Positions 7,370 through 63,259 of a stretch of 64,000 nt of DNA are shown here, in pieces (position 1 is the stretch's first letter; each line of letters opens with the position of its first letter). The stretch is from assembly GCA_051294905.1 (NCBI GenBank), contig CM119372.1:7690001-7754000 (forward strand). The letters run 5' to 3'. The notes under the pieces are model-generated. The model did not search any database. It was not told the DNA's origin and saw nothing but the letters and a program-made list of their open reading frames with translations. A program made the translations under genes and the position numbers. The stretch comes from Botryllus schlosseri (Eukaryota).

Positions 7370-17270
<9,901 letters not shown>

Positions 17271-17499
17271 CTTGCTGCGATGTGATTTCCAAGCAGTGAA
17301 AGATCAGGGTAACCTACAAATGAAGTAGACGAAAACCTAGAAAAATATTGAATGGATGAGCAAAAAATAAAAGTGGTCTTTTTTGACACTGAAGTATGGA
17401 GTAAACATGAAAAGCACTGTTAAAAATTTTCATTCCACAATAATGACATACCAATATGTTTATATCGCAAATTATGGTATAATTTGTCAAGTAATCACG

Positions 17500-17950
17500 C
17501 ATATAACTCGTGACCGTCCTACTGACAATGCATTGGCAAGGTGCGGCAAGCATTTACTAGAAAATCATACTTGTGCTGCTAACTATCAAGAGGACATGTT
17601 CTCTATATTGGCTAAGGGTCGCAATTTATTTCATTTGTCTGTTCTTGAGTTCACCGTCATCACTATGAGTAAACCTAGTCTATGCCAACAGAAAGAATTT
17701 GTGTATCATTTGAAAATCGCGCATTAACTGTTTTGCTTCGCTATCTCCATGCCAACGCATCAGTTCTCTCGTTTTCCTTACTTTGTATATTTCCTGTGTG
17801 ACGTCATAATTAGCGATATATATTGTTGCTGAACATAGTTATTCGAATTCTCGCAATACTGCTGACGATATCCCCTGACGAGGGTCAGCCGAAAAGCTTC
17901 GGGAATAAATATGAATATTTTATTCAAATGCGTTTTGATGTTCTGTACTC
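17500..17950 (+). mobile_element. Penelope-like retroelement 3' fragment (GIY-YIG endonuclease end plus pLTR)
   Basis: GKHLLENHTCAANYQEDMFSILAKGRNLFHLSVLE...KPSLCQQKEFVYHL, paralogous to 62318-62677, followed by a hammerhead motif. Confidence 0.75.
17861..17907 (+). ncRNA. Minimal type I hammerhead ribozyme motif (Penelope-associated), intact core
   Basis: tccc-CTGACGA-gggtcagcc-GAAA-agct-TC-ggga. Helix I tccc/ggga; palindromic helix III aagctt; predicted cleavage after C17900. Confidence 0.75.
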
Positions 17951-18228
17951 CTAAGCGTCTCTTTGTGTACATCCTGAAAATGGATTATTGGATAAGATGA
18001 TTGGCCAAGTTAATTTTGTAAATTGTTTTAGTATCAATCAACAATAGATAGCCTAATTGACTGGATGAAAGTTATCCAACCTTGTTATAACTTTACAATC
18101 AGGCATACTGATTAACAAACACAAAAATTATTTTGCTTCAAGTTATCAATGACAAATAAAAAGAATATAGAAATAATGAACCAGATGAATTTAACCTTCC
18201 CTTAGATAGCCTAACCAATCGTCTAGTA

Positions 18229-19745
18229 CAGGGGTTCTCAACTTTCCTTGTATAACGGGCCGCCTTTGACAGCAAAAGACGCTGTGGGCCGCAGAACAAT
18301 ATCACCATGTATTTATGGGTTACTATTAAATTTAGGCTACGGTAGCCTATTTACCAGTCGTATACTGGCATTTAGTACATTTTTGTGCATTATAAAGTAT
18401 TATTGGACAGCGTTCGTAAGTTTGCAGCTGCTGCTTGTTCTGTATCTTCTAGCGGCGCAAGTAAATCGCTTCATGGACAGTGCATTGCCTTCGTTGCCAA
18501 GTCGGTATATGCAACTTCAAACCCTTCCACCAGAGAATCGAATTCTCTGTATGAATGTGCGAGAGAGCAAATACAAAATTACGGTAACTTTTGCGTTACA
18601 GAGGCCATTATCACATTGAGCTCTGAGTGATATGAGAAGAAGTCTGGCGTTCGAGGTCATTTTTGAGCAAACCAATCAACCCTTCTCCTTTCCTTCCATG
18701 CCTGGGGCCCTACACCAATAGTTGCAGAAGTCAACTTTGTCAAGTTGATATTATTCGCTGGCCACCCAGTATTCGCTGGCCCAGTATTCGCTGGCTAAGC
18801 TTGGCCACCCAGTATTCATCTGCATATATGTCCACTCTAGTAAAATTCAACCAGAGTTATGCAAAGTCGGTGGATTCGTCCCACGCTGGGTTAAAGTAGT
18901 CCACGCGGCAACGTGTTTCAGAACATGCGATAAAAGATCGACTAACATTGATGTTACTCGTCTGGTCACGATTAAATCGGACGACTGTGTCTTCAAAATT
19001 TGTCAGGAGATGTTGTCCTTGCTGCTAAGTTCCGGAAAGAGCAAATATTCGCACAGCAGGCCTGTGTTAAAGGATTAATTGAAATCACTCCTTCTACAGC
19101 AGATTTCTTGGGTTAAGCGATACTCCAAGCAATTTTGAACGATGCGTTTGTAACGTCGTCGGCAATCTCAACAACCGTTCGCGGTGAGTCAAACACTCTT
19201 AAAAATTGTAGGCCTACTACGTGGCGGGATTCTCCTGAACCAAAGTCCAGCCGAATAACGATTCGAAACTATCTGAAGTCGACCATATATCAAGAAACGA
19301 GAACACATTAAAGCAGTGGTTCTTAAAACTTTTTTAGACAGGCCAGCCTTTTTTTTTACCTTATCGTCATATAGCAAAATGTATCCGGAACGCTAGCAAT
19401 ACAAACGGCTAGTTTGATGGCATGGAAGGTTATGGTTGTTGATGAGAGATTTCTCATGAAGGAAATTCGGACTATACACAAAGAAATAACTTCGAATTGG
19501 AGATAAATTGCGCGCAGCGCGAATATTTTTTCAGTTGACCGCAACTTCGCGCCATTTCCCCTGTTCTGACCCCCAGTTTGCAAACCACTGCATTCAAGAA
19601 CGAATAATCAAACGAAACAAAGACGGTGCAATAAAGTATCTGAATTAATATGTAACAATACCGTGTCAGTAGTAATTGCGTTTATAATGAAACATGTCGC
19701 GGGCCGCAGAATAACCGTCTGCGGGCCGCGGGTTGAGAACCCCTG
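18229..19745. mobile_element. hAT (Charlie/SPIN-like) element, same family as 536-1722
   Basis: Same TIRs and collinear interior; perfect TSD GTCTAGTA. Confidence 0.9.
19314..19590. mobile_element. Nested hAT MITE related to 62055-62353
   Basis: CAGTGGTT...AAACCACTG; TSD CATTAAAG/CATTCAAG; shares gtttgatggcatggaaggttatg with 62170. Confidence 0.8.
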
Positions 19746-26600: not shown

Positions 26601-29600
26601 GCCGGAGTGACGTTTCTTGCGATTGCATTGGGTATGCGTTGTCAATTTTCGCGCGGAGTTATCTGGCCCGCGTGTATAGGGGTAACCAATCGCTGAAAGT
26701 CGCTCTTGCTGGTTACTACCTTGCATACGACGCCGCGGCGGTGGTCAGTAATCAATAACTTCTTATTTTTCCGAGTACTCGAAGTAGATTTTAACTACTA
26801 GCGGTTATGTCTTGAGACTATACTATCTTCCACTTGGAATTTTTAGGCAAAGCCACTGAATTTTTTCACCTCGGAGTTTGAAAAGTAAGGAGTAGTTTTG
26901 GAATGCTTGCATCAATTTTATGCGTGAAAACGTGAAATTTTCATGACAAATGGGCGAAAGAGTGCCTGTATTGCTGTGACTGAATATATTTTCAAAACTG
27001 GCACCTATAGATTTAGTATAATTACAGTTATGTTACGTTAGTCCACGGCCATGGTTAGTCGCAAGGATGCATCTTTCAATCTCGAAAGTGGTCACCTCCG
27101 CGATTAACCGCAAAAGGTATGCGATCCATCGACCAAATCTACTATGTCAAATTACTATCTTGAGTATACTTTTAAATTTTAATATCTTGATTCCCCTTCC
27201 ACTTCAAATAGTATTGACATGCCTCTTAAACTGCTACTTCTACTTGTAATTGATTATAGAAATTAATGCGCTACAGATATTTCTACATGAGTGACAACTC
27301 CAACTAATTTTTTTTTACCGCCGCCGCGTCGCGATTCTATCTCAAAATACGCATTTTGACAGGAGCGTCTCATCTACTCATGGGTGACTCAAGTGCGGAA
27401 CAGCAAGGTTCCATGCGCCAGTTCCTCTTTACTCTTCAGGTGCGTTTCGCATTTCCATCGCTTGCATTTTCATGTTGAGTTGTATTGATTTTCATTCAGT
27501 GTGCATGCTACATCTTTTTTACATCGTTTACCCCGGAGGGTTTTCGACTCATTCCCCTCCCCTGTTCAGTTCGACATAAATTTTCGCCCACCTTATTTAC
27601 GGAGCCAAAAAAGAGGACATATAAACGGGAAATTTATTTACTCAACTCTGAGAAAGATATAAATGCCCCGAAAACTGGTTTCCGCGTCTACTTTCCATTG
27701 CTTTGACATTTTTAGTCCACTTTTGCGTCATATGCAGAATATGCCGTCTTCAAGCGCATTTTTTTGGCCTTAATAATTAAATTTGTGTCACTGGGCGTTC
27801 TAGCATCTCCTCTCCGACGCCCTTTGGTATTTTCACCCCCTTGTTTCTCAAAATCGCCCACTGGGGGCGATATCGCCCACGTTCGGAACCACTGGGGCAG
27901 CCCCAGGTATAGGTATCTGATATTTCGAGACTACTCCAGGTCGTTTCGACACCTTCCTATCTTTTCATTGTATCTCAATATTGTGGTGTTTGTTAAAAAG
28001 TAAAATTAATATTAAATTGATGGTGATGATGATCGCTATTTCAGGTTCAGGAGATAGACAACGCTGACACGGAATGGAGCAGTGACTTGAATCAACTGGA
28101 CTCGCCGAAGGCGCGAAATATCATTGATGCGCTAAGTCCAAAAGTGAATAGTCCTCGGTCAGTAGTCTGTTTGTGGTCACAATCATAGGCTGTTTCTTCA
28201 GATCCGCGAGGCTTTCGATTCGGAAGGATTGAATGCGGAAGACATACGCGCGACTGAAATTCGGCCAGTGAGCGTGGCCTTCTACAAAGTGTTCAACAAC
28301 ACGGTGTCGTCTCTCACGTCTAACGAGGAGATTTCGATGGTATCTAGTTATAAGGACGATAACGGCAAAGGAATTGCTGAGGATGACAGGGTATAAAGTG
28401 CACGCGCTACAATCTCTACCCAGCTATACACTGTAAACGTAAACCAAAATAGTGCACAGGGTGAAAATCTGATAAACGCCGCTTTATGGTAAGATATACT
28501 TGCCTTTCATACCCGTTACAGAGGGTGAAATTGAGTCAAATACACCAATCATTATGGAGGTGGAGATACATCTCAGGGGTAATATGCTAATACGTGTAAT
28601 AAGCTAATAACTGTTGATCCGACGATGATATCGAGAGTTCCAACCATTCCATATCGTATACGCCCGACTATATCGGGTGCAAATCGTCCGTAGGCTCATA
28701 TACTACATGCTTTTTCGAAAGTATTTACACAATTATGACATAATTATACAACCCTCCACTCCACACCAAAGTAGGAGTTGTGCATCGGGATCTCAAGAAT
28801 TATGAAAATGTGAATCGGCACCGCTAAGATTCGGGTGAACAATGTACGCAAATTGCACCCCCCACAGTTTTAGCGAAAAAAGTGTGTATTCGCTCGCATC
28901 TTAAACGTGGTACGGAAACAGAGTCCAAATCAGAATTATGTCGCGATTATAAATCCTACACTCCTTTACGTACAATGTACATGCAATATTTGGATGAAAC
29001 TGTTATGTTTGATTTATACCGTGGTGTAAGTCGGAGATATGTTCTGCCTTCGTCTACCACGGGTGTACTGTATATTCACACCTGTATATCACGGGTGGTA
29101 CACGGTTGTGAATGCGCACTTTTTTTTCGCTAGGAGTGCACATATAATCCACGCCTCAATCTAGCTTTTCCCCGTCCCGCTGGCGAATACATGATTACTG
29201 AATCTGCCTTCGTCACAAGCAGTTGCGTCACTATTTGTAGCCTATTCCCCAAGGCCATCGAAACGTCATCCGGATTCTCTTCGAAACAACCGGAGACCCG
29301 GCCAGCAATCCAGGAATGGCGTCGCAAGTCGGGGATACGGAGAACGAGAAAATAAAACTGATGCTCGACAAGTACCTGGGCAATCAAGGCGTCGTAGCCA
29401 AAGCCGAGTCTTTCGCCGGTAGGTTTTTGTCACGGCGCGAGACTGAGATGATGAATTTATCGTATGCGACCGTTTAGTGTCACCCGAATTCCGGCGATCC
29501 GCGAGGACTTTGCAAAAGCCGTCGGACGGCGCTGAAGCAACGGTCGATGGCGGTAACAGTAAGTATAGATAACTAACCTACGGATAGATACACAACCCCC

Positions 29601-32600
29601 GTCGTCACGCTTGCTTGCCCGGAGGAAATTACTGCTCAGCAATCTGAACGCAACATCATTGCTAATCCCATAGCTGACGACCCGCTTGCCTAAATTCAAT
29701 AAAGTTGATCTTATTTGAAAGCTACTGCGGCACTGATTCCGAAAATATACATTAAAATCCAATCAGGGCAATGTAGCTCCCTTGAAAATCACCTCATAGT
29801 CTGAAAATCGGCATTGTTCCAAACAATCGCAGCGACATAGCACAATGACCATAACGATGGCCCTTGCGTGGTCGCGATTGTTCATAACAATGCCGATTTT
29901 CAGACTTTGAGGTGTATTTAAAGAGGGTTCCATTGCCCTGATTAGATTTTAATGTATATTTTTGGAATCAGTGCGACAGTATCTTTCAAATAAGATCGAC
30001 TTTATTGAATTTAAGCTCGCGGGTCGTCAGCTATGGGATTAGCAATTATGTTGCGTTCAGATTGCTGAGCAGTAATTTCCTCCGGGCAAGCAAGCGTGAC
30101 GACGGGGTTGCGTATCTATCCGTAGGTTAGTTATCTATACAGTAAGTGATATCTATTTCTGCATGCAATGTTCGCATATGGTCGCATTGATCACCCGAAA
30201 GTAGTGCGCTCAAACTCAGTTTTCTATATACAGATTTTAAGGCCAAACTGGCCAAGTGGCCATGGTCATGGTCAATAACGCCTAAACTGCAAACCTATCG
30301 CTGGAAAGTAGGTGTATATATCAGGTTTCCACCACAACACACGGTGTAAATTATTTCTATCCCCATAACAATTGGTGCCAAACACTGAATTTTATTACAA
30401 TTAGACGGAATTACACCCTTTCTCCTCCTATGAATTAAAGCCACGTTACGGTAATTGGTAATGCGATTTTTTGACAGGTCAAAAAAAGTCAAAACTGTAG
30501 CGTTACGTAAAAAAATGTCAAATTTTTTTACAAAGTTAAAACTTTTTTTCAACCTGCATTCCGTTTGTATCGTAGATTTTGCACTGTGGGTAACTTATCA
30601 TTTGACATTTTACAGCTTGTAGCCTACTTTATAGGCATACGGTTGTATACGGCCCATTGTCTGCTCGTTGTGAAACAGAGACATTCAAATGAAACAAATA
30701 GGTTGACATGGTGTTATGCTCAACGCACTCGGTGGTAGTATATAATTTCGATGATATTTCAATTAAACAATTTCACGATCTCGTTATGATCATACCTTGC
30801 TGGCAAAAGTTGAGGAAACCGCTAAGTCTATTCGTGGGCTGAATTTGTAAAATAACTTCCATTTGTTGCTTTTATGTCCGTTTTTGTAAATTTTGCTTCC
30901 AACTACGAAGGGAATTTAAGCATCATCAAACTCAAACCCGTTTTCGTCTGTAGGCATCTCCATAGACTGCTACAGAACTGGAGAATCGTTGGGTGTCACC
31001 CGTTCCACCGTGATATGCCCGCCAAAATGCCGGGATGTCAAAAACGGCGTCGTCATAGGAACCGACTGGTATTATATCAGCTCCATGATTTGCCTTGCTG
31101 CTATTCATAGCCACCTTATCGAGGTAAGACACTCATTTGGAAATGTGACAAAGGCTAATATTCATAGAGGTTCGTGAGGAGGAGATATCGGCTGGGTTAT
31201 TGCCTTACTAAATTGTGGATGTGTGTAAGACTATTTAAAACAAAAATCAATTTGAAATAAACACGTTTAAAACATGTCTTCGATTGTTCATTTTAACCAT
31301 GACGTCACAAATTTTCGGTTGTTACGTCACGGTGGATTGGCATTGTTAATTGGTTACGAGTCTTACAATCGGAAATACATTTCATAGTGTTAATACGGTT
31401 CAGTATCGAGTTCGAGTTCGGTTAAACTCACGTCTTTGAAACTCTTGGGTGATATCGAAGGCCTCAGAGACATATATTCTCTTTGCATGTAGTTAGTGTA
31501 TAGAGCCGGCTATAGCGTCACAGAACTAACCTTCTCCATACACTATACCAGTGGTCGGGAACCTATGGCTCGCGAGCCATATATGGTTCTTTTGGGCATA
31601 AGATATGGCTCTTTTCGAAATTTTTGTTTTTGTGCTTAATTTATCAAAACTGCAGCAACTTGTTCATAAATCTTCGGCACCACCAGTATAATTTTTCTTG
31701 CGGTATTATAAACATGTCTTTGAGAGGTTTATACAGTTGCGTAATCGGGGTTTGGGGCTCGGACCCCCTTTTCAAAATCCTCAAATTTAAGCTGATGTAT
31801 CGCCGGCGACCAATATCACTCTGGATTTCGATATACCCGCCACGAAATCTTGGATTGCACGATACGTTGATTGATCAAAGAGCCCATATAGGAGACATGG
31901 CGGCGCCTGTATCACAATGCAGTTTTCAAATACATATTTTCTTACTGATCTACGGCGAGAAATGAATTGTCGTGGGTTGAAGTGACATTCACAATTACAA
32001 ATTCAAATTACAAACAACGCCATAGTAATCCACGTTATTGATTGACAACGTGTAGCTTGGTAGTCGCTTTTAAAATATGGATGTGTGCCGCAACGTTATG
32101 TTACCGTCGAATACTTTGAGAATTGAGAAATCGAATCGGTATCAGTGCGACAATTACATTCGATTAATATCAGTTATTATAAGTTCTAAGATATTTCCGC
32201 CGAATTGCGCTATCACAAGTAAGGCATGGCCCGGCCGTGCTTCACATACGCCTTACCTCTTCTTTCGCGCTTTATTGTCGAACAATTTGGTAGTAGAAAT
32301 GTTCAAAATCTAGTATACAGGTGAGGCGCTGGCTCACTTGCCTCCCCTGATCCCACGTCATTGACACATCACACATTACAGTGGGTATGTATACTGCTGT
32401 ATAGTGACCATGTCTGGCTCGACCTACGTATGTCATCATGGGTCCTCGCATCTAATTTTGTATGAACAACAATTATCAACCAATCAATCAATCAATCATT
32501 TTTTATTTGTCACACCAGTGAAAATCCGGTACGGACCAGGATGACGACGAGGGGCCGCAAGGCCTTAGTACACAGTCGCCACCTGAAGGAGTATACACAT

Positions 32601-35600: not shown

Positions 35601-38600
35601 ACGCGAAAAATGCCATGGTAAGCGATACGCACGTTGGCGTTTAGCGTCCGAGAAAGTAAAATTTGACCCGTACGCAGGCGATATCACCGTACATGCCGCT
35701 AAACGACGAGAATGAAGCGGACTTGACCGCTAAACTTGCGGTGAACTTGATGGAAGAGGGTCTGGGAACATCTGGACTCGTTGCCGAAGGTAAAGCTATT
35801 TTATCTGAGACAGAGGTGTGTGATTTGCCAATCGCTATTTAGGCCAGCAGTGATCAACATAGTCCGTGCTGGTACTCAAAAAGAAGTTATAGAAGTTTTA
35901 CAACTTAGTAAATTTCTACTCAATCCCAAGCAGAAGTGTAGTGACTTATAAGACATTTGAAAACTACTTGAAGTGGATGTAGTCTGGGGGCGGATATCAT
36001 AAAGTTAGGTGATCCAGAAGAATGCTAATAATGGTGTGATTAAAAACTGGTAATCGTGGCGCATTTTAGGCGGAGATCAAAAAGTTTGCTGTACCGGAAG
36101 AATGCTAATCGTGTGATTAAAAACTGCTAATCGCGACGGATAAAGTAGGATAAAGGTTACGCGCGATGATTACTCCAGGTGTCCCGAGTTTTCAATTACC
36201 TGGTGTTATCTATTGCATCACAATGCGAAAACCCTCCTCGCCCCCTCATCCTCGTTAAGCGGTGTCTTACAAAAAGCCTAGAAGTGGGCCGTGCTATAAG
36301 TCGGCAGTTACGGAAGATAATGAAGAATGTCGGCCTGGTGTAAATGACCATAGTAGTCGACAAAGGCGACAACGTGGTTTGGCTGTCAGTCGTCATTTGT
36401 TGAATCCTTCGTCCAGTCCTTCGTTACTGACCATGACCACCTTTGTTTATGAGGCTGAGTATTGTGAAATTAACTTTTATGGTCAGACTTCACCGATACA
36501 GGGTTTTGATAAGAATTTGCGAAAACATTTTAAGGATATTTTTTTAAAAAGACGAATTTATCTGTATGTCCAGTGTTTGTTTTGTCCGGCATGCGAGAAT
36601 ACGTGTCCGGTCAATACCGAGAACGCTATTACCGAGAAGGACAATACCGAGAATGGACACCACCGAGAATAGACATTACCGAGAATGCAATATTTGCAAT
36701 GTTATGTATATGTATATGCATATGTATATGCATATGAACAGGTCGTGTGTGTGCATCACGGCGTTGCCACATTCGGTATCGATTCTCAGATATAAATTTC
36801 TCGACAAAGCCCGTCCCACTAAGCTAGGTTCTTGGCACTCACCATTCTCGGTAATGTCCATTCTCTGTAATAGCATTCTCGGTAATGTCCATCTCGGTAA
36901 TAGCATTCTCGGTAATAGTATGGAAACGTCGTAAAGTCCGAAGTTTGAGGGTGCAATATCGCAAATTCTCGAAAATCGTTATGTTTTTTATACACGCTGC
37001 GGTTTTGTGGTTTTCTGTGACTCGACGATCTGACATTTATATTCCAGTTAGCGACAATGTCAAAGTCGCATGGTCGGAATTGGACGGCACAGAAACGGAA
37101 GGCGACGATAACGCGAAGTTATTCTGCCCGTAAGTGACATGGTTTGGTTACTCACGATACGAAATCAAACGCTCCGTTACGTTACCACATCTATATAATA
37201 GGTGTACGGATGTGTTCTTCGTTGTCGAGACGTCCGCATTTCGATCAAAGACAGACGCGAACAACGTGTTGAAGATGCACGAAAGAGTGTTCAGGCTTGC
37301 AGAATTCGATCAGGTTGGAAATAGGCTATATATTACCGGACGCGGTGAAAAGTAATCAGTATTGCTACTCAAGTAGAAGTAATGTTGAAAGAAACTCAAT
37401 TCCAAGTATAAACTAGCGATTTCTAAGACGTGCTAAAAATATACTTCATGTACTGTACAAGTAGTAAATAAGAGGGGGCTATACAATCAACTTTTTTCAA
37501 CTCTGCTCGAGTGATATAGAATGGCTCGCATTCATAATATTGTAATTTTCCTCAGTCCGAACAGTTTCTGGCCCTATTTCCAACTGTTTCATACTATTAC
37601 CGAGAATGCTATTACCGAGATGAACATTACCGAGAACGGATATTACCGAGAATGCACATTACCGAGAACGGACATTACCGAGAATGCACATTACCGAGAA
37701 CGGACATTACCGAGAACGGACATTACCGAGAATGCACATTACCGAGAACGGACATTACCGAGAATGGACATTACCGAGAATGGCCAATGCCAAGAATCTA
37801 GCTTAATGTAACGGACGTTTGTCGAGAAATTTATACCCGAGAATCGACACTGAATTTAGCAACGCCGTGATGCACATTGCACACACACGACCTGTTCATA
37901 TGCATAACATGCCTGCCTTGCATATATTGCATTCTCGGTAATGTCCATTCTCGGTGGTGTCCATTCTCGGTAATGTCCATTGTCGATATTGCCCATTCTC
38001 GGTAATGACCATTCTCGGTGGTGTCCATTCTCGGTAATGTCCATTCTCGGTGGTGTTCATTCTCGGTAATGTACATTCTCGGTGGTGTCCATTCTCGGTA
38101 ATGTCCATTGTCGATATTGCCCATTCTCGGTAATGTCCATTCTCGGTGGTGTCCATTCTCGGTAATGTCCATTCTCGGTGGTATCCATTCTCGTTAATGT
38201 CCATTGTCGATATTGCCCATTCTCGGTAATGTCCATTCTCGGTATTTTGCTTCTCGGTAATAGCATTCTCGGTATTGACCGGACACAATTTCCAGGTATC
38301 AGGACTGATAGACGAAATACCAGTAATGTGGTGACTTTACTAATCTTCGAAGACAATGAAATGCCAGTCTTGGCCGTCCTAGTCTCGAGTCATGCACAAT
38401 CACTCGAGTACAAGTCGAGTCAATACACAAATTGACTCGAGTCGAGTCATTTTACGCATTTGAAAAAATGACTCGAGTCCTGTCATCAAATACTCTGATG
38501 GTTTAGAAATGCGTCTTAATCTAGATACAGGGCCGTAACAGCACTTCGTCAGGCCCCCCCCAAAACTTTGGTCTTGGGCCCCCCATAGTGTTATAGACCG

Positions 38601-41600: not shown

Positions 41601-44600
41601 GCAGACCCACTAGTTCAGGATAACGATGATATCGTGCTCACCAGGCGTGTTCTACTCGATAAATTAGGCCAGAGACTATAGCGAGCGCACAGCAATCAAC
41701 GACCTAATTCCCGTGCAAATGAAAAACAATGTCAGCGAGAGATCGTGTACCATTGTACGCAGTCAATTCTCGCTACCTGGCAACACGCTTCTCGCTGATT
41801 GGCGCTGATCGCAACATTGATAGTTCGAATTACTGACTTGCAACTGAATATTAGTGAGATAATGGGCATTACAAAGAGGCGGGGTTTCGAGCTCGAAAGG
41901 GGGGTTCAACGCCGCAAAAAACGCTGACTACCCGCCCTATAGTGCAAGTATAGACAAAATCTGCCTGAAGTGCTTCGAAAGATCGGAGTACTCGGTTCCT
42001 GTCGGAGGTGGTCAAAGTAGTCAACAAGTAAAGTATGATACTCGGAATTGGAAGTGATATATAAATACCACTTCTTAGAAGCGGATAATATATTTCATAT
42101 CTTTTGTCCATAAAGCTTCAAAGGTGATCTGCTAAAACAGGTGTAACGTTAAAAAAGCCGCATTTTCTAGATTAGCAGGACACGTCATGGGCCGCTAGGT
42201 TACGATATGATAGGTAATTGCTAGATTGCGAAACGTTAGTTTCAAATCTTATGGTGGGCCATATTTACTGTGATGGAATATTTGATATGGGCGACAATGC
42301 GGTGTGAGCGGAATCAAGCAATCCGGTACCAAAATAATATTCACTGTTACTTTCGTGAAAACATATTTGTCACTCCATATAACTACTGTGCGCGAAGCGC
42401 AACAATATTTCTGGGTTTACTTGACTTTTATGAATATCAAATGTTGCTACTGCGTGAAAACAGCCCCGAAATTCTTCAGGCTATCTTTCGTATTGAGGTA
42501 GGCTTACCATATTTTGGAAATCTAAAAAGAGGACACTTTTTCAGAAATTTGAGACTTGCAAAACCGGAGAAGAATTTTCAAAAACCGGTGAATTTTTCCC
42601 ACTTTGTGATCGGTAGACTAAAAAAAAAAGGTCATCTTTCCGCCCAGAGCTACAATAACCGCTTTTCACTCCGAAATACCCGCCGGACCGTCAGTTATGT
42701 GCTAATTCAAGGCATATCACTCGCAATTTGCTCTAAATCTGACCTAAATTTTCAAAAAAGAGGACAAAATCTCAAAAAATAGGACAAAAGGGCGTCCTCC
42801 GAGGACACTTTCAAATATGTCAAAAAAGACGACAAATCCTCTTAAAAGAGGACGTATGGTAACCCTATATTGAGGGATTAAACTACTTCTACTTGACAAA
42901 CCGAAAATTGCGAAAAGTAAGTAAGTAGATCACAAAATATTTCGAAGTAGAAGTAGAGAAAATCAGATCTACTTGAGTAAGTACCAGAAGTAGAGGAAAA
43001 CTACTTGAGTACTTCCAAAAAGTAGAAGTACTTCGTTACTGACCACCTCTGGTTACTGACCACCTTCATTAGCTTCATTATACAAAAGGCACCCCATAAG
43101 CTTAGCTCGTTTCGCGCTATACAGTTCTCCTGTAGCATTTTCAAGAAAACCAGAAACTCGATTAGGTTTAAAGTAGGAGCACAGAAGCATTTCACTATAG
43201 AAATTAAACATGGAACGGCAACGGCCGATTTTGCAGCTTCGTTCCGCTTCGCCGAGGCTGGAGTGGAGAATTGTTTTGCGTAAGCGACAGTAGGATTTCT
43301 GGCAATCCAAAAGCTATCTTCCCGAGCGCAGATATCACTGAATTTGGTCTTGATCGAAAGCTACTGTTGCACCGATTCCGAAAATATAAATTAAAATAAT
43401 AATCAGGCACTGATCCATCTACAATCCGCCTCCATAACGATGACCCGTCGCGACTCTCCGATTGTTCGAACGATGCCGATATTTCAGACTTGGAAGACGG
43501 ATTCTAGGTGGATCAGTGCCTGGTTATTATTTTAATTTATATTTTCGGAATCGGTGCAACAGTAGCTTTCGATCAAGACCAGATTCAATAATTTCTGCGC
43601 TCGGGAAGATAGCTTTTGGATTGCCAGTAATCCTACAGTCGCTTACGCAAAACTATTCTCCACTCCAGCCTCGGCGAAGCGGAACGAAGCTGCAAAATCG
43701 GTCGTTGCCGTTCCATGTTTAATTTCCATAATTTCACAAATTAGATTACATGTATTTCGTTCTAATTAGTCTAATTAGACTCCTAGAATTATCTGATTGT
43801 CCGAGTCTGCCGCGACGACCCTTTTCTCATTTTCAGGACGTACAAAATCTCCGGTTTTTCAACGAAGACCTGCAGTTTCGCGATAAATTACTGGTGATCT
43901 ATTCCGAATCGCCGTTGAAGCGATCGTACGCAGAAATCTTCAAGACCCTGAAATCGAAATCCGTTAAAATCCTCAGCGTCGGATACGACAGAGAATCGGA
44001 GTAAAGTGGTTATTCTGTGGCGCGGCAGCGCTTCTAGCTTGAAAACTCTCTTTTCCCGTTCAGAGACGATTCGTACGAACAATACGTGTCCAGCCCGACG
44101 CAGGATTTCTCCAAGAGAGCGAGAAGCGTGACCGACTTGAAGGAATTGGCGCCGTACACGATCGACGTTATGCGGTTAGTCACGGTATATAGCTGTAGGG
44201 ACGTGGTCTTTAATCTTTCTTAACCCGGCGAACCCAACGTTTTTGCCTAACCTATTCACAAAAACAAACCACCATATTGAATATCGTACACTCGTAGCGA
44301 AATAAGTGTATATTCACACCCAAAGGGTCGTAAAGAATGATACAGAACCATACTCAGAATGATAGCGCGCTCACGGTCATAATTCCCACGTGCGTTCGTG
44401 CACACCACAATTTGGATGAAATGCTGAACTCTATTTATACCGCGGTATAAGTCGGAGGTAGGTTCTGCTTTCGTGTGTCATGGGTGTATATTAACACCCT
44501 TACATAAGGGGTGGTACACCGTGAAAATACGTACCCTTTCCGGTAAGACTGTGGGCCACGAAACCAAATTACACATCCGTATAATGCATTTCTAGAACAC

Positions 44601-61615: not shown

Positions 61616-61900
61616 GCGCAATAGCACTGTGGACTACTTGACTACCATGATTAGATAACCGGATATTATATATATAGAAATCGGTCTAAAAGACCTGTAT
61701 ACGTTGCTGGTGGTATTATAGTAATAGACGGAGGTTGAAGAATTCATAATTGCACAATTGACTCCTCACATGATCGCCAACTTCCCATAATAGGCCACGA
61801 GTAGACCTGGACGAAGGCATACTGATCATATTTTTAGTAGAGCTTCTTGGAGATACAGAACTTCAATATACAATTGAAATGTTTATTTATATTGAAATGA

Positions 61901-61947
61901 GCCCGAATATTTTCGGCTGACACTCGTCAGGGGTAATCGTCAGCAAC
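61901..61947 (-). ncRNA. Minimal type I hammerhead ribozyme motif, intact core
   Basis: Reverse complement gttgctgacgattaccc-CTGACGA-gtgtcagcc-GAAA-atat-TC-gggc; palindromic helix III aatatt. Confidence 0.75.
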
Positions 61948-62054
61948 TACTAGAGAATTGGAAAGAATGTTGTATATTAACAACCGTATCACATGATATG
62001 ACGTCACCAGCAGGAAATGAGATCTCAAATAGGAGAGCGTTCAATGTACTATTG

Positions 62055-62353
62055 CAGTGGTTCCCAACCTTTTTTTAGACACGCTCCCCTTTATGATAGT
62101 GAAAAATTTCGCGCACCCCTTATCGTCATATCACAAAATCCAACGAGGATGCTGGCAACCCCAACAGATTGTTTGATGGCATGGAAGGTTATGAGTGTTG
62201 ATGAGAGAATTAAAAAATATGAAAATCGGTATCTATATAGAGAAACACGCGTGAATTGGAGGAAAATCGCGCAGAGCGCGAAAACTTTTTTCAGTTGAGC
62301 GCTTCTTCGCGCCCCCTTCAGATGCTTTCACGCCCCCAGGTTGGGAACCACTG
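62055..62353. mobile_element. hAT (Charlie-like) MITE inserted in the Penelope relic
   Basis: CAGTGGTTCCCAACC / GGTTGGGAACCACTG; perfect TSD TACTATTG. Confidence 0.9.
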
Positions 62354-63082
62354 TACTATTGTAAGATGGTATACGAACTCCTTTTGTAGACAAAGCCTGG
62401 GCTGATGTATTTTGATAAAGGTCGACTCCAAGGCACACAGATGAAAGTTAGAGCGGCCCCTTCCGATGACGCGAAATCTGTCGCCTCGATAATTTTTCGC
62501 ACAAGCACGATTGTCCAACAGATGTTGGCCAATGGCAGAGTTTATGGCCTTTGATCGCTCGACATCAAGCTTAAGTGGATGAGACAAGGGTGAGCTTTTC
62601 ACCGAGCGTGATGCACGTGTTCTGATAAATCTAGGGACATGGTAGTTCTTCAACACGTAAAGACGTGCTTCCTGCACTTCAACAAAGTAATGTATAGTGT
62701 AAGAATTTAAGTGCCACTGTGGTTGTGGCTAAGTCGGAAGAACGATGGCAATGTACTATTTTTAGGTGATACACGAACTCCTTTTGTTGACAGAGTTTTG
62801 GTTGGTGTATTTTGATAAAAGTTGATTCCAAGGCACACAAATGGAATTGTGAACGGCCTCGATTTCGAATCGTAGGTCGAGGCCGTTCACAATTCCATTT
62901 GTGTGCCTTGGAATCAACTTTTATCAAAATACACCAACCAAAACTCTGTCAACAAAAGGAGTTCGTGTATCACCTAAAAATAGTACATTGAACGCTCTCT
63001 CATTAGAAATTTCATGCTGGTGACGTCATATTTTGTGATACGATTGTTGATATACAATGTTCTTTCCAATTCTCTACTAGTT

Positions 63083-63126
63083 GCTGACGATTACCCCTGA
63101 CAAGTGTCAGCCGAAAATATTCGGGT
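63083..63126 (+). ncRNA. Hammerhead ribozyme motif with core substitution (CTGACAA), probably inactive
   Basis: accc-CTGACAA-gtgtcagcc-GAAA-atat-TC-gggt; G8->A. Confidence 0.6.
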
Positions 63127-63259
63127 TCATTTCAATATGAATATACTATTTAATTGTAAATCACATTATAAAATGTATTATACATAAATATCCGGATTCC
63201 CTGGATAGCATTCTTCTCTTTAATTGGTTATACTTACAGGCGATCTAGCATTTTTGAGG

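Follow-up and report, generated by a model that had tools for sequence, protein, structure and literature searches.

The 64,000-nt stretch of the Botryllus schlosseri genome analysed here (GCA_051294905.1, contig CM119372.1, positions 7,690,001-7,754,000, forward strand; hereafter the window, whose coordinates are used throughout) carries at 17861-17904 of its plus strand a motif that sequence and topology confirm as a real type I hammerhead, with cleavage as a prediction. The explanation that best accounts for it, to which we assign a probability of about two in three, is that the motif belongs to the 3' pseudo-LTR (pLTR) of a truncated Penelope/Poseidon element, that its helix II is completed by an upstream leader, that it would cleave as a dimer, and that the genomic copy is an inert passenger. 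The sequence of the motif, its family, its position after the open reading frame (ORF) and its covariation across copies are direct observations.

Read from 5' to 3', the motif opens with the leader GCTGAC (17861-17866), the 5' strand of a putative pseudoknot with 17884-17889, which shows compensatory changes across families. The 5' strand of helix I, TCCC (17871-17874), pairs with GGGA (17901-17904), a strand marked by covariation, and may reach 17869 with one bulge. Enclosed by helix I are the catalytic core from C3 to A9, CTGACGA (CUGACGA in the RNA; 17875-17881), and the nine nucleotides of helix II, GGGTCAGCC (17882-17890), where the pair G10.1-C11.1 closes a 7-nt loop whose GTCAGC (17884-17889) supplies the 3' strand of the pseudoknot. 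GAAA (17891-17894), AGCT (17895-17898) and TC (17899-17900) follow, so that the palindromic helix III, AAGCUU (17894-17899), runs into the UC cleavage site with a predicted cut after C17900. AATAAA stands directly 3' of the cut site (17904-17909) and is absent as a conserved feature from other families. Every letter that a previous sequence-only reading had assigned to leader, helix I, core, GAAA, AGCT and TC was found in its place when the positions were re-read. Judged by the core consensus of PMC3088659, the type I letters C3 U4 G5 A6 N7 G8 A9, G12 A13 A14 A15.1 and U16.1 H17 are complete at 17875-17900, the core-flanking pairs 1.1-2.1 (C-G), 10.1-11.1 (G-C) and 15.1-16.1 (A-U) are present, and helix I is open.

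The loose core pattern is weak by itself, with 9 matches in the window against 4.56 expected and 4 of 100 shuffles reaching 9. Only a single site in the whole window, 17861-17904, shows the full type I topology; none of 300 dinucleotide shuffles produced it with a palindromic helix III, and any type I topology appeared at a mean of 0.05. The complete core and a topology beyond shuffles agree with the type assigned previously, and core conservation and covariation across copies are seen both in window copies and in relatives. Its description of the ribozyme as intact applies to the consensus letters; this copy has lost the G-U pair that the pseudoknot has in other copies, as well as the TATA spacing, and activity is a prediction. 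The hammerhead-model search that it had proposed came back empty: Rfam gave no hammerhead at the gathering score in the entire window, and its 5 matches to 13500-18500, taken up to E 10, include none either, presumably because its hammerhead models describe longer helices. Two other readings of the site were rejected, the upstream CTGACGA at 17862-17868 as the true core, which lacks a 10.1-11.1 pair and a proper helix I, and a minus-strand hammerhead, which lacks a core.

The hammerhead belongs to a 5'-truncated element end of ~440 bp. The ORF at 17515..17727 (plus strand, stop codon 17725-17727) is the 5'-truncated C-terminal tail of a Penelope-like reverse transcriptase (RT)-endonuclease; only the last ~70 aa are left, and the GIY and YIG motifs are absent. 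The distance from the stop codon to the core is 148 nt, as against the ~150 nt stated before, and 120-200 nt in relatives. Searched alone, the 17515..17727 tail had no match in Pfam, and a word-indexed protein search returned 6 candidates, none at E 0.001. The fragment 17473-17724 aligns at 52% identity (E 2e-19) with the C-terminus of the RT-bearing protein P0081, and a full HMMER search with a sister tail at 62351-62566, which is 46% identical to the tail ending at 17727, retrieved 1001 proteins at E ≤0.001. Eight of the 1001 were domain-scanned, revealing a reverse transcriptase in one (P0081) and GIY-YIG in three, one of them above the curated cut-off. The relative L057 has an open RT and endonuclease frame with DKG and YVDD, a C-terminal endonuclease without Zn-finger linker, and then the same hammerhead. 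With the match to P0081 and this relative, the previous identification of a Penelope end stands. Neptune and Nematis elements have a Zn-finger linker upstream of the GIY-YIG endonuclease (Fig. S2 of PMC8557442); the layout of L057, compared by eye with that figure and not by an RT tree, appears to be that of the Penelope/Poseidon clade. An assignment to Nematis was dropped after comparison of the linker in the same figure.

A short tail motif ~40 nt past the cleavage site (17940..17952, plus strand) has similar counterparts, judged by eye and unscored, in the other window subfamily, L001, the L004 family and L081. It is probably the end of the element; the shared motif may perhaps mark this end or the point where reverse transcription starts. 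The window copy extends over ~17515-17955, with no target-site duplication of more than 6 nt at the element ends. In run X5, contigs reach a depth of ~76 on single-copy DNA and of 65,000-210,000 at 17872-17910; although depth is not a copy number, this suggests that the family has hundreds to a few thousand copies.

Six related hammerhead copies lie in the 64-kb window, three of which were used to build the search model and therefore match it by construction; the cores are complete in the copies at 17875 and 61930. The nearest same-strand copy with a matching palindrome (13942..13993, plus) is a decayed sister with AAGCUU and a broken helix I. Two rearranged sisters form an inverted pair at 14157..14320 (14157-14204 minus, 14270-14320 plus). 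The AAUAUU subfamily is represented by a minus-strand sister with an intact core (61897..61947, downstream of the endonuclease tail 62351-62566) and a plus-strand sister in which G8 is replaced by A (63080..63130, downstream of the tail 62845-62988). Helix III thus reads AAGCTT at 17875 and ~13977 and AATATT at 61930 and 63097, changing yet remaining palindromic as had been remarked. That the leader pairing is kept in the other copies is correct for 61930 and 63097 (7 bp, one G-U), partly so for 13959 (5 bp), and incorrect for the two rearranged copies at 14157-14320, where it is lost or broken.

The surroundings of these sisters are themselves complex. The region 13884-14345 contains three further pLTR fragments inside an STK38 intron, one copy of the inverted pair lacks a CTGACGA repeat while the other has an additional one, and around 14100-14230 the X5 contigs are ~10,000 times as deep as on single-copy DNA, indicating that the subfamily there is very abundant. 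At 61849-63160, truncated Penelope-like ends of the AAUAUU subfamily are arranged head-to-head with a hammerhead at each outer end and a long inverted repeat at ~62750-63010; endonuclease tails occur on both strands, and an unrelated repeat of ~300 bp interrupts the minus arm near 62050-62353.

Relatives in other genomes were collected with the endonuclease alignment, the best 80 of 391 confirmed metagenome stretches and 3 loci from contigs filed as bacterial making 83 loci; ~75 of them constitute one family, so the counts overstate independence. None of 156 stretches found in viral contigs with this alignment was confirmed. A pattern consisting of the core and G-N7-C only, which does not demand the pseudoknot, detected 49 motifs, spread over 47 of the 83 loci; the remaining loci stop early, are cut off or have a damaged motif. 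At least six loop bases pair with the leader in 42 of the 49 motifs, mostly from one family and from about six families in all. Helix I has at least 4 bp in 44 motifs, and 39 have AGCT as helix III loop. For a chance control we used 94 core-pattern matches in prokaryote and virus contigs and set aside 3 from a Penelope-bearing contig; leader-loop pairing was present in 5 of the 91 left, helix I in 1 and both in none, and the pattern scans of these contigs yielded no new hammerhead family. Leader and loop read GCUGAC(G)/(U)GUCAGC in the window, UCUGACG/UGUCAGA in L001, the L004 family and L083, UCCGACG/UGUCGGA in L057, L058 and L040, and UGACGC/GCGUCA in L081 and L082. One family, seen at L057:2021 and L040:1502, has a longer palindromic helix III (~8 nt) together with the changed pseudoknot pair. 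Six contigs from bacterial bins (L081, L082, L083, L111, L112 and L117) contain animal-type Penelope-like elements and are probably host DNA in those bins.

Covariation was evaluated on nine hand-picked copies (3 from the window and 6 loci; L083 and the decayed window copies were left out). With the pseudoknotted hammerhead 94% of the cells are paired and five pairs show two-sided changes, which none of 500 shuffles reached; two of the seven pseudoknot pairs and three of the four helix I pairs are involved. A rival fold of two hairpins (the core-loop hairpin and CCGAA/UUCGG) pairs 82% of the cells with no two-sided change. G10.1-C11.1 is G-C in all nine copies, and the second helix II pair is missing in eight. 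The pseudoknot part of the covariation comes down to only two or three independent events, and sequences of common origin can outscore shuffles even where no structure is conserved. The central GAC/GUC of the leader-loop pairing is nearly invariant, so common descent accounts for part of its conservation, and the leader of L112, which pairs in a register shifted by two, counts against the pseudoknot in the alignment. The pseudoknot proposed before gains support from the compensatory changes in the leader-loop pairing, there being none in the core-loop hairpin.

The leader of the 17875 copy repeats the core, with CTGACGA present twice, 13 nt apart (17862-17868 and 17875-17881), and loop II is therefore able to pair with the core as well as with the leader. 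In a folding model the leader lowers the probability of the core-loop hairpin from 0.73-0.76 to 0.11, which suggests that it frees the core, and the middle four leader-loop pairs reach 0.84-0.85; the CCGAA/UUCGG hairpin persists at 0.55-0.95. Among nested folds the monomer hammerhead has -0.1 kcal/mol and inactive folds have -11.6 and -12.5 kcal/mol, and the cofold of two copies contains no double hammerhead, in both cases with a program that cannot form pseudoknots. A self-duplex is predicted for the AAGCUU palindrome, and mixed AAGCUU/AAUAUU pairs are not.

We considered how else the leader might be understood. An inhibitory switch had been proposed as one possibility; on such a view the leader would open helix II by pairing with loop II, and the ribozyme would stay inactive until released by a partner or a protein. 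The leader of the 17875 copy indeed takes C17889, which could otherwise bind G17883 and so lengthen helix II to 2 bp, and the nested fold of lowest energy has the leader helix and no hammerhead. However, with the second pair missing from eight of the nine aligned copies, helix II is absent unless the leader is present; removal of the leader in the folding model leaves the core trapped by loop II; and helix I shares no bases with the pseudoknot, the spacing between the two being kept (linker of 0-6 nt). Since the leader competes with the inactive core-loop hairpin and compensatory changes are found in the leader pairing only, we regard a switch as very improbable, and the leader is best read as an activating pseudoknot and not as an inhibitor. 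One might also suppose that the leader arose long ago by duplication of the core, and take the motif for a slow or non-cleaving relic, or for a protein-binding or promoter element that happens to keep the letters of a hammerhead. The repeated CTGACGA, which window copies have lost or gained, would fit such an origin, as would the predicted dominance of inactive folds. In the largest related family (L002-L080), U3 together with G8 is frequent in the core, as is U17 at the cleavage site, which may reflect weak selection for catalysis; U3-G8 is found in 27 of the 49 motifs, the published U3-A8 pair in L001. In addition, a lizard Poseidon element inserts in vitro without need of its hammerhead (PMC11167929). 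A mere by-product is nevertheless unlikely in our judgement, as the leaders of L057/L058/L040 and of L081/L082 are unlike the core and yet pair with a changed loop, and as N7 of the core varies freely, breaking the core-loop hairpin, while the leader pairing persists.

The sequences upstream suggest where the element RNA would begin. Of the 42 paired motifs, 37 have a TATA-like heptamer whose first base lies 30-36 nt upstream of the leader, as against 0.7% of 20,000 random positions, the pattern having been chosen after the sequences were viewed; this spacing is found in six of seven families (the AAUAUU subfamily of the window, L001, L004, L057, L081 and L083). The usual distance from TATA to the start of transcription is ~30 nt, which places the predicted RNA start 2-4 nt before the leader and suggests that the element RNA begins at the leader strand. 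The only TATA-like run of the 17875 copy, TATATAT at 17817..17823 (plus strand), starts 44 nt before the leader, outside the 30-36 nt of the relatives, and its promoter has probably decayed. The palindrome TGACGTCA (17799..17806, plus strand), which we take to be CRE-like, is also kept near 61997 and 63021; in both window subfamilies its distance to the leader is 55-60 nt, and other families have CCAAT boxes instead. It is a possible upstream promoter element of the pLTR. CCAAT boxes and an initiator-like TCATT motif are visible in several families.

From these elements a mechanism can be proposed, in which pseudoknot geometry, start site, dimer and cleavage are deduced. The full element would be transcribed from the pLTR promoter with the RNA starting 2-4 nt before the leader, and the leader would fold into the pseudoknot while the RNA emerges. 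With its 6-7 bp, the pseudoknot would extend the single G-C pair of helix II, hold helix II beside helix I and keep loop II off the CUGAC core. The palindromic helix III would require a second copy with the same palindrome, giving a double hammerhead; a tandem transcript would carry a 5' and a 3' hammerhead, which would pair through the palindrome and then cut, as has been proposed for the class (PMC4209133; PMC6765202). Cutting would remove a capped leader of ~45 nt and release unit-length element RNA, possibly assisted by the element protein as for the Anolis element (PMC11167929). More tentatively, and with the odds rather against it, this could be a fast, dimer-gated hammerhead whose helix II is finished by the 5' nucleotides of the capped transcript, so that promoter and ribozyme would act as one unit that removes the cap and sets the RNA ends, and which may have been overlooked in large numbers as published descriptors demand a longer helix II.

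For the role of hammerheads in Penelope-like elements (PLEs), a covarying Watson-Crick pseudoknot is important because it gives a clean test of whether a PLE hammerhead can be fast, and the pseudoknotted subgroup also predicts where the element RNA starts. Lunse, Weinberg and Breaker reportedly described small PLE hammerheads with a very short palindromic stem III and dimer cleavage in 2017, and their abstract reportedly states that in other hammerheads loop II commonly forms a pseudoknot with bases that precede stem I. As far as citing reviews convey them, those variants share the very short palindromic stem III and the link to PLEs, and a pseudoknotted helix II of 1 bp may already be among them.

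It has been published before that Penelope-like elements carry hammerheads, that helix III in these is palindromic and that they cleave as dimers. Like the hammerheads of Cervera and De la Pena 2014 (PMC4209133), ours is of type I, lies in a pLTR downstream of an RT-endonuclease ORF, and has a short helix I, G10.1-C11.1 and a helix III that is a very short palindrome. Both sets also include numerous single copies at dispersed sites, inverted pairs and the U3-A8 variant (here in L001). In that study, however, helix II is long, the descriptor requiring at least 3 bp and all 56 examples of Fig. S3 having 3 bp or more, an extra base after A9 is usual, and a truncation test found no hidden tertiary contact. 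The 17875 motif departs from all three, with a 1-bp helix II, no extra base and a loop II that pairs with the leader. The earlier label of a minimal type I PLE hammerhead consequently holds for the element, the type and the palindromic helix III, but published forms have a helix II of at least 3 bp. By its sequence, the structurally distinct part of the variant is the one-pair helix II with a leader-loop pseudoknot. This combination is absent from the 56 examples and the descriptor of PMC4209133, and no description of it in Penelope-like elements was found in the portions of the literature compared, to which the alignments of Lunse 2017 did not belong.

Similar features are known separately from other hammerheads. 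Pseudoknotted hammerheads of bacteria, phages and human C10orf118 have been described, forms with a one-pair stem II included (Perreault 2011, PMC3088659), in a study where repetitive type I hammerheads were left out of the stem-length analysis; the example given there differs in being of type II, from a metagenome, and working without a dimer. Chrysovirus and fusarivirus hammerheads (PMC13725137; helix II of 0-2 bp) resemble ours in their type I form, a helix II of 1-2 bp and leaders before ORFs, but they are viral and have a long helix III, with no loop-loop contact reported in the sections consulted; those with a 1-bp helix II cleave slowly. The amphibian non-LTR retrozyme HHR_Amex1 (PMC7229834) likewise has a tiny helix III (1 bp and a palindromic tetraloop) and cleaves well only as a dimer, whereas its helix II is canonical, its loop contacts are non-canonical and it forms short tandem repeats. 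A non-LTR retrozyme, with tandem repeats of 150-450 bp each carrying a hammerhead and no ORF, was rejected for our motif, which is a single copy behind an endonuclease remnant; the other window copies are dispersed or inverted, without tandem array. The Poseidon element PAc of Anolis (PMC11167929) is alike in clade, by endonuclease layout, and in having its hammerhead in the pLTR, but that hammerhead cleaves only with the protein of the element and overlaps the ORF start, and no pseudoknot is described in the sections consulted. PLE hammerheads that have been tested cleave poorly, and reviews state that they have no tertiary contacts (PMC6155905, PMC7761336).

The element lies next to the STK38/NDR kinase gene, whose first coding exon is at 17058..17313 on the minus strand (ATG 17270-17268, splice-acceptor-like AG 17315-17314) and of which a later exon matches human STK38 (6bxi, E 2.2e-27); the RNA reads contain no splice joint at the first coding exon. 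With the hammerhead on the plus strand, the STK38 pre-mRNA carries the reverse complement of the ribozyme, and the element probably occupies a 5'-UTR intron in antisense orientation. In single-cell run X21, the orientation of which was set by only a few STK38 reads, ribozyme-sense signal exceeds the opposite at 17603-17861 (56.4 versus 17.1) and at the minus-strand copy near 14180 (522.8 versus 128.9), the family overall being ~3-4:1 sense. Most RNA reads at the 17875 copy are only 90-95% alike and hence derive from other copies. Reads cross the predicted cut site, and in the 3-6% covered of each of two RNA runs, which were not built for such ends, read starts and ends do not pile up. A contig from another sample, with 29 differing letters, spans the left junction, indicating that the insertion is not private to one haplotype.

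The sequence-only reading had implied a link to STK38. Regulation of this gene by a co-opted 17875 copy, through cutting of an antisense RNA or as an antisense promoter in the first intron, would find some encouragement in the ~590 nt that separate hammerhead and start codon, in the preservation of all core letters and of the presumed CRE-like palindrome, and in the sharing of the insertion between haplotypes. We give it hardly any credence. The ribozyme strand is opposite to the pre-mRNA, six copies per 64 kb make proximity expected for a family of hundreds to thousands, the only copy nearby that shares both strand and palindrome has decayed, the TATA spacing is lost, and the reads at the site come mostly from elsewhere. 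The 17875 copy is probably an inert passenger, most likely without consequence for STK38. Elsewhere in the window, self-comparison revealed long inverted repeats of 530-640 bp at 29563-30140, 43196-43730 and 37596-38198, which are possibly fold-back transposons.
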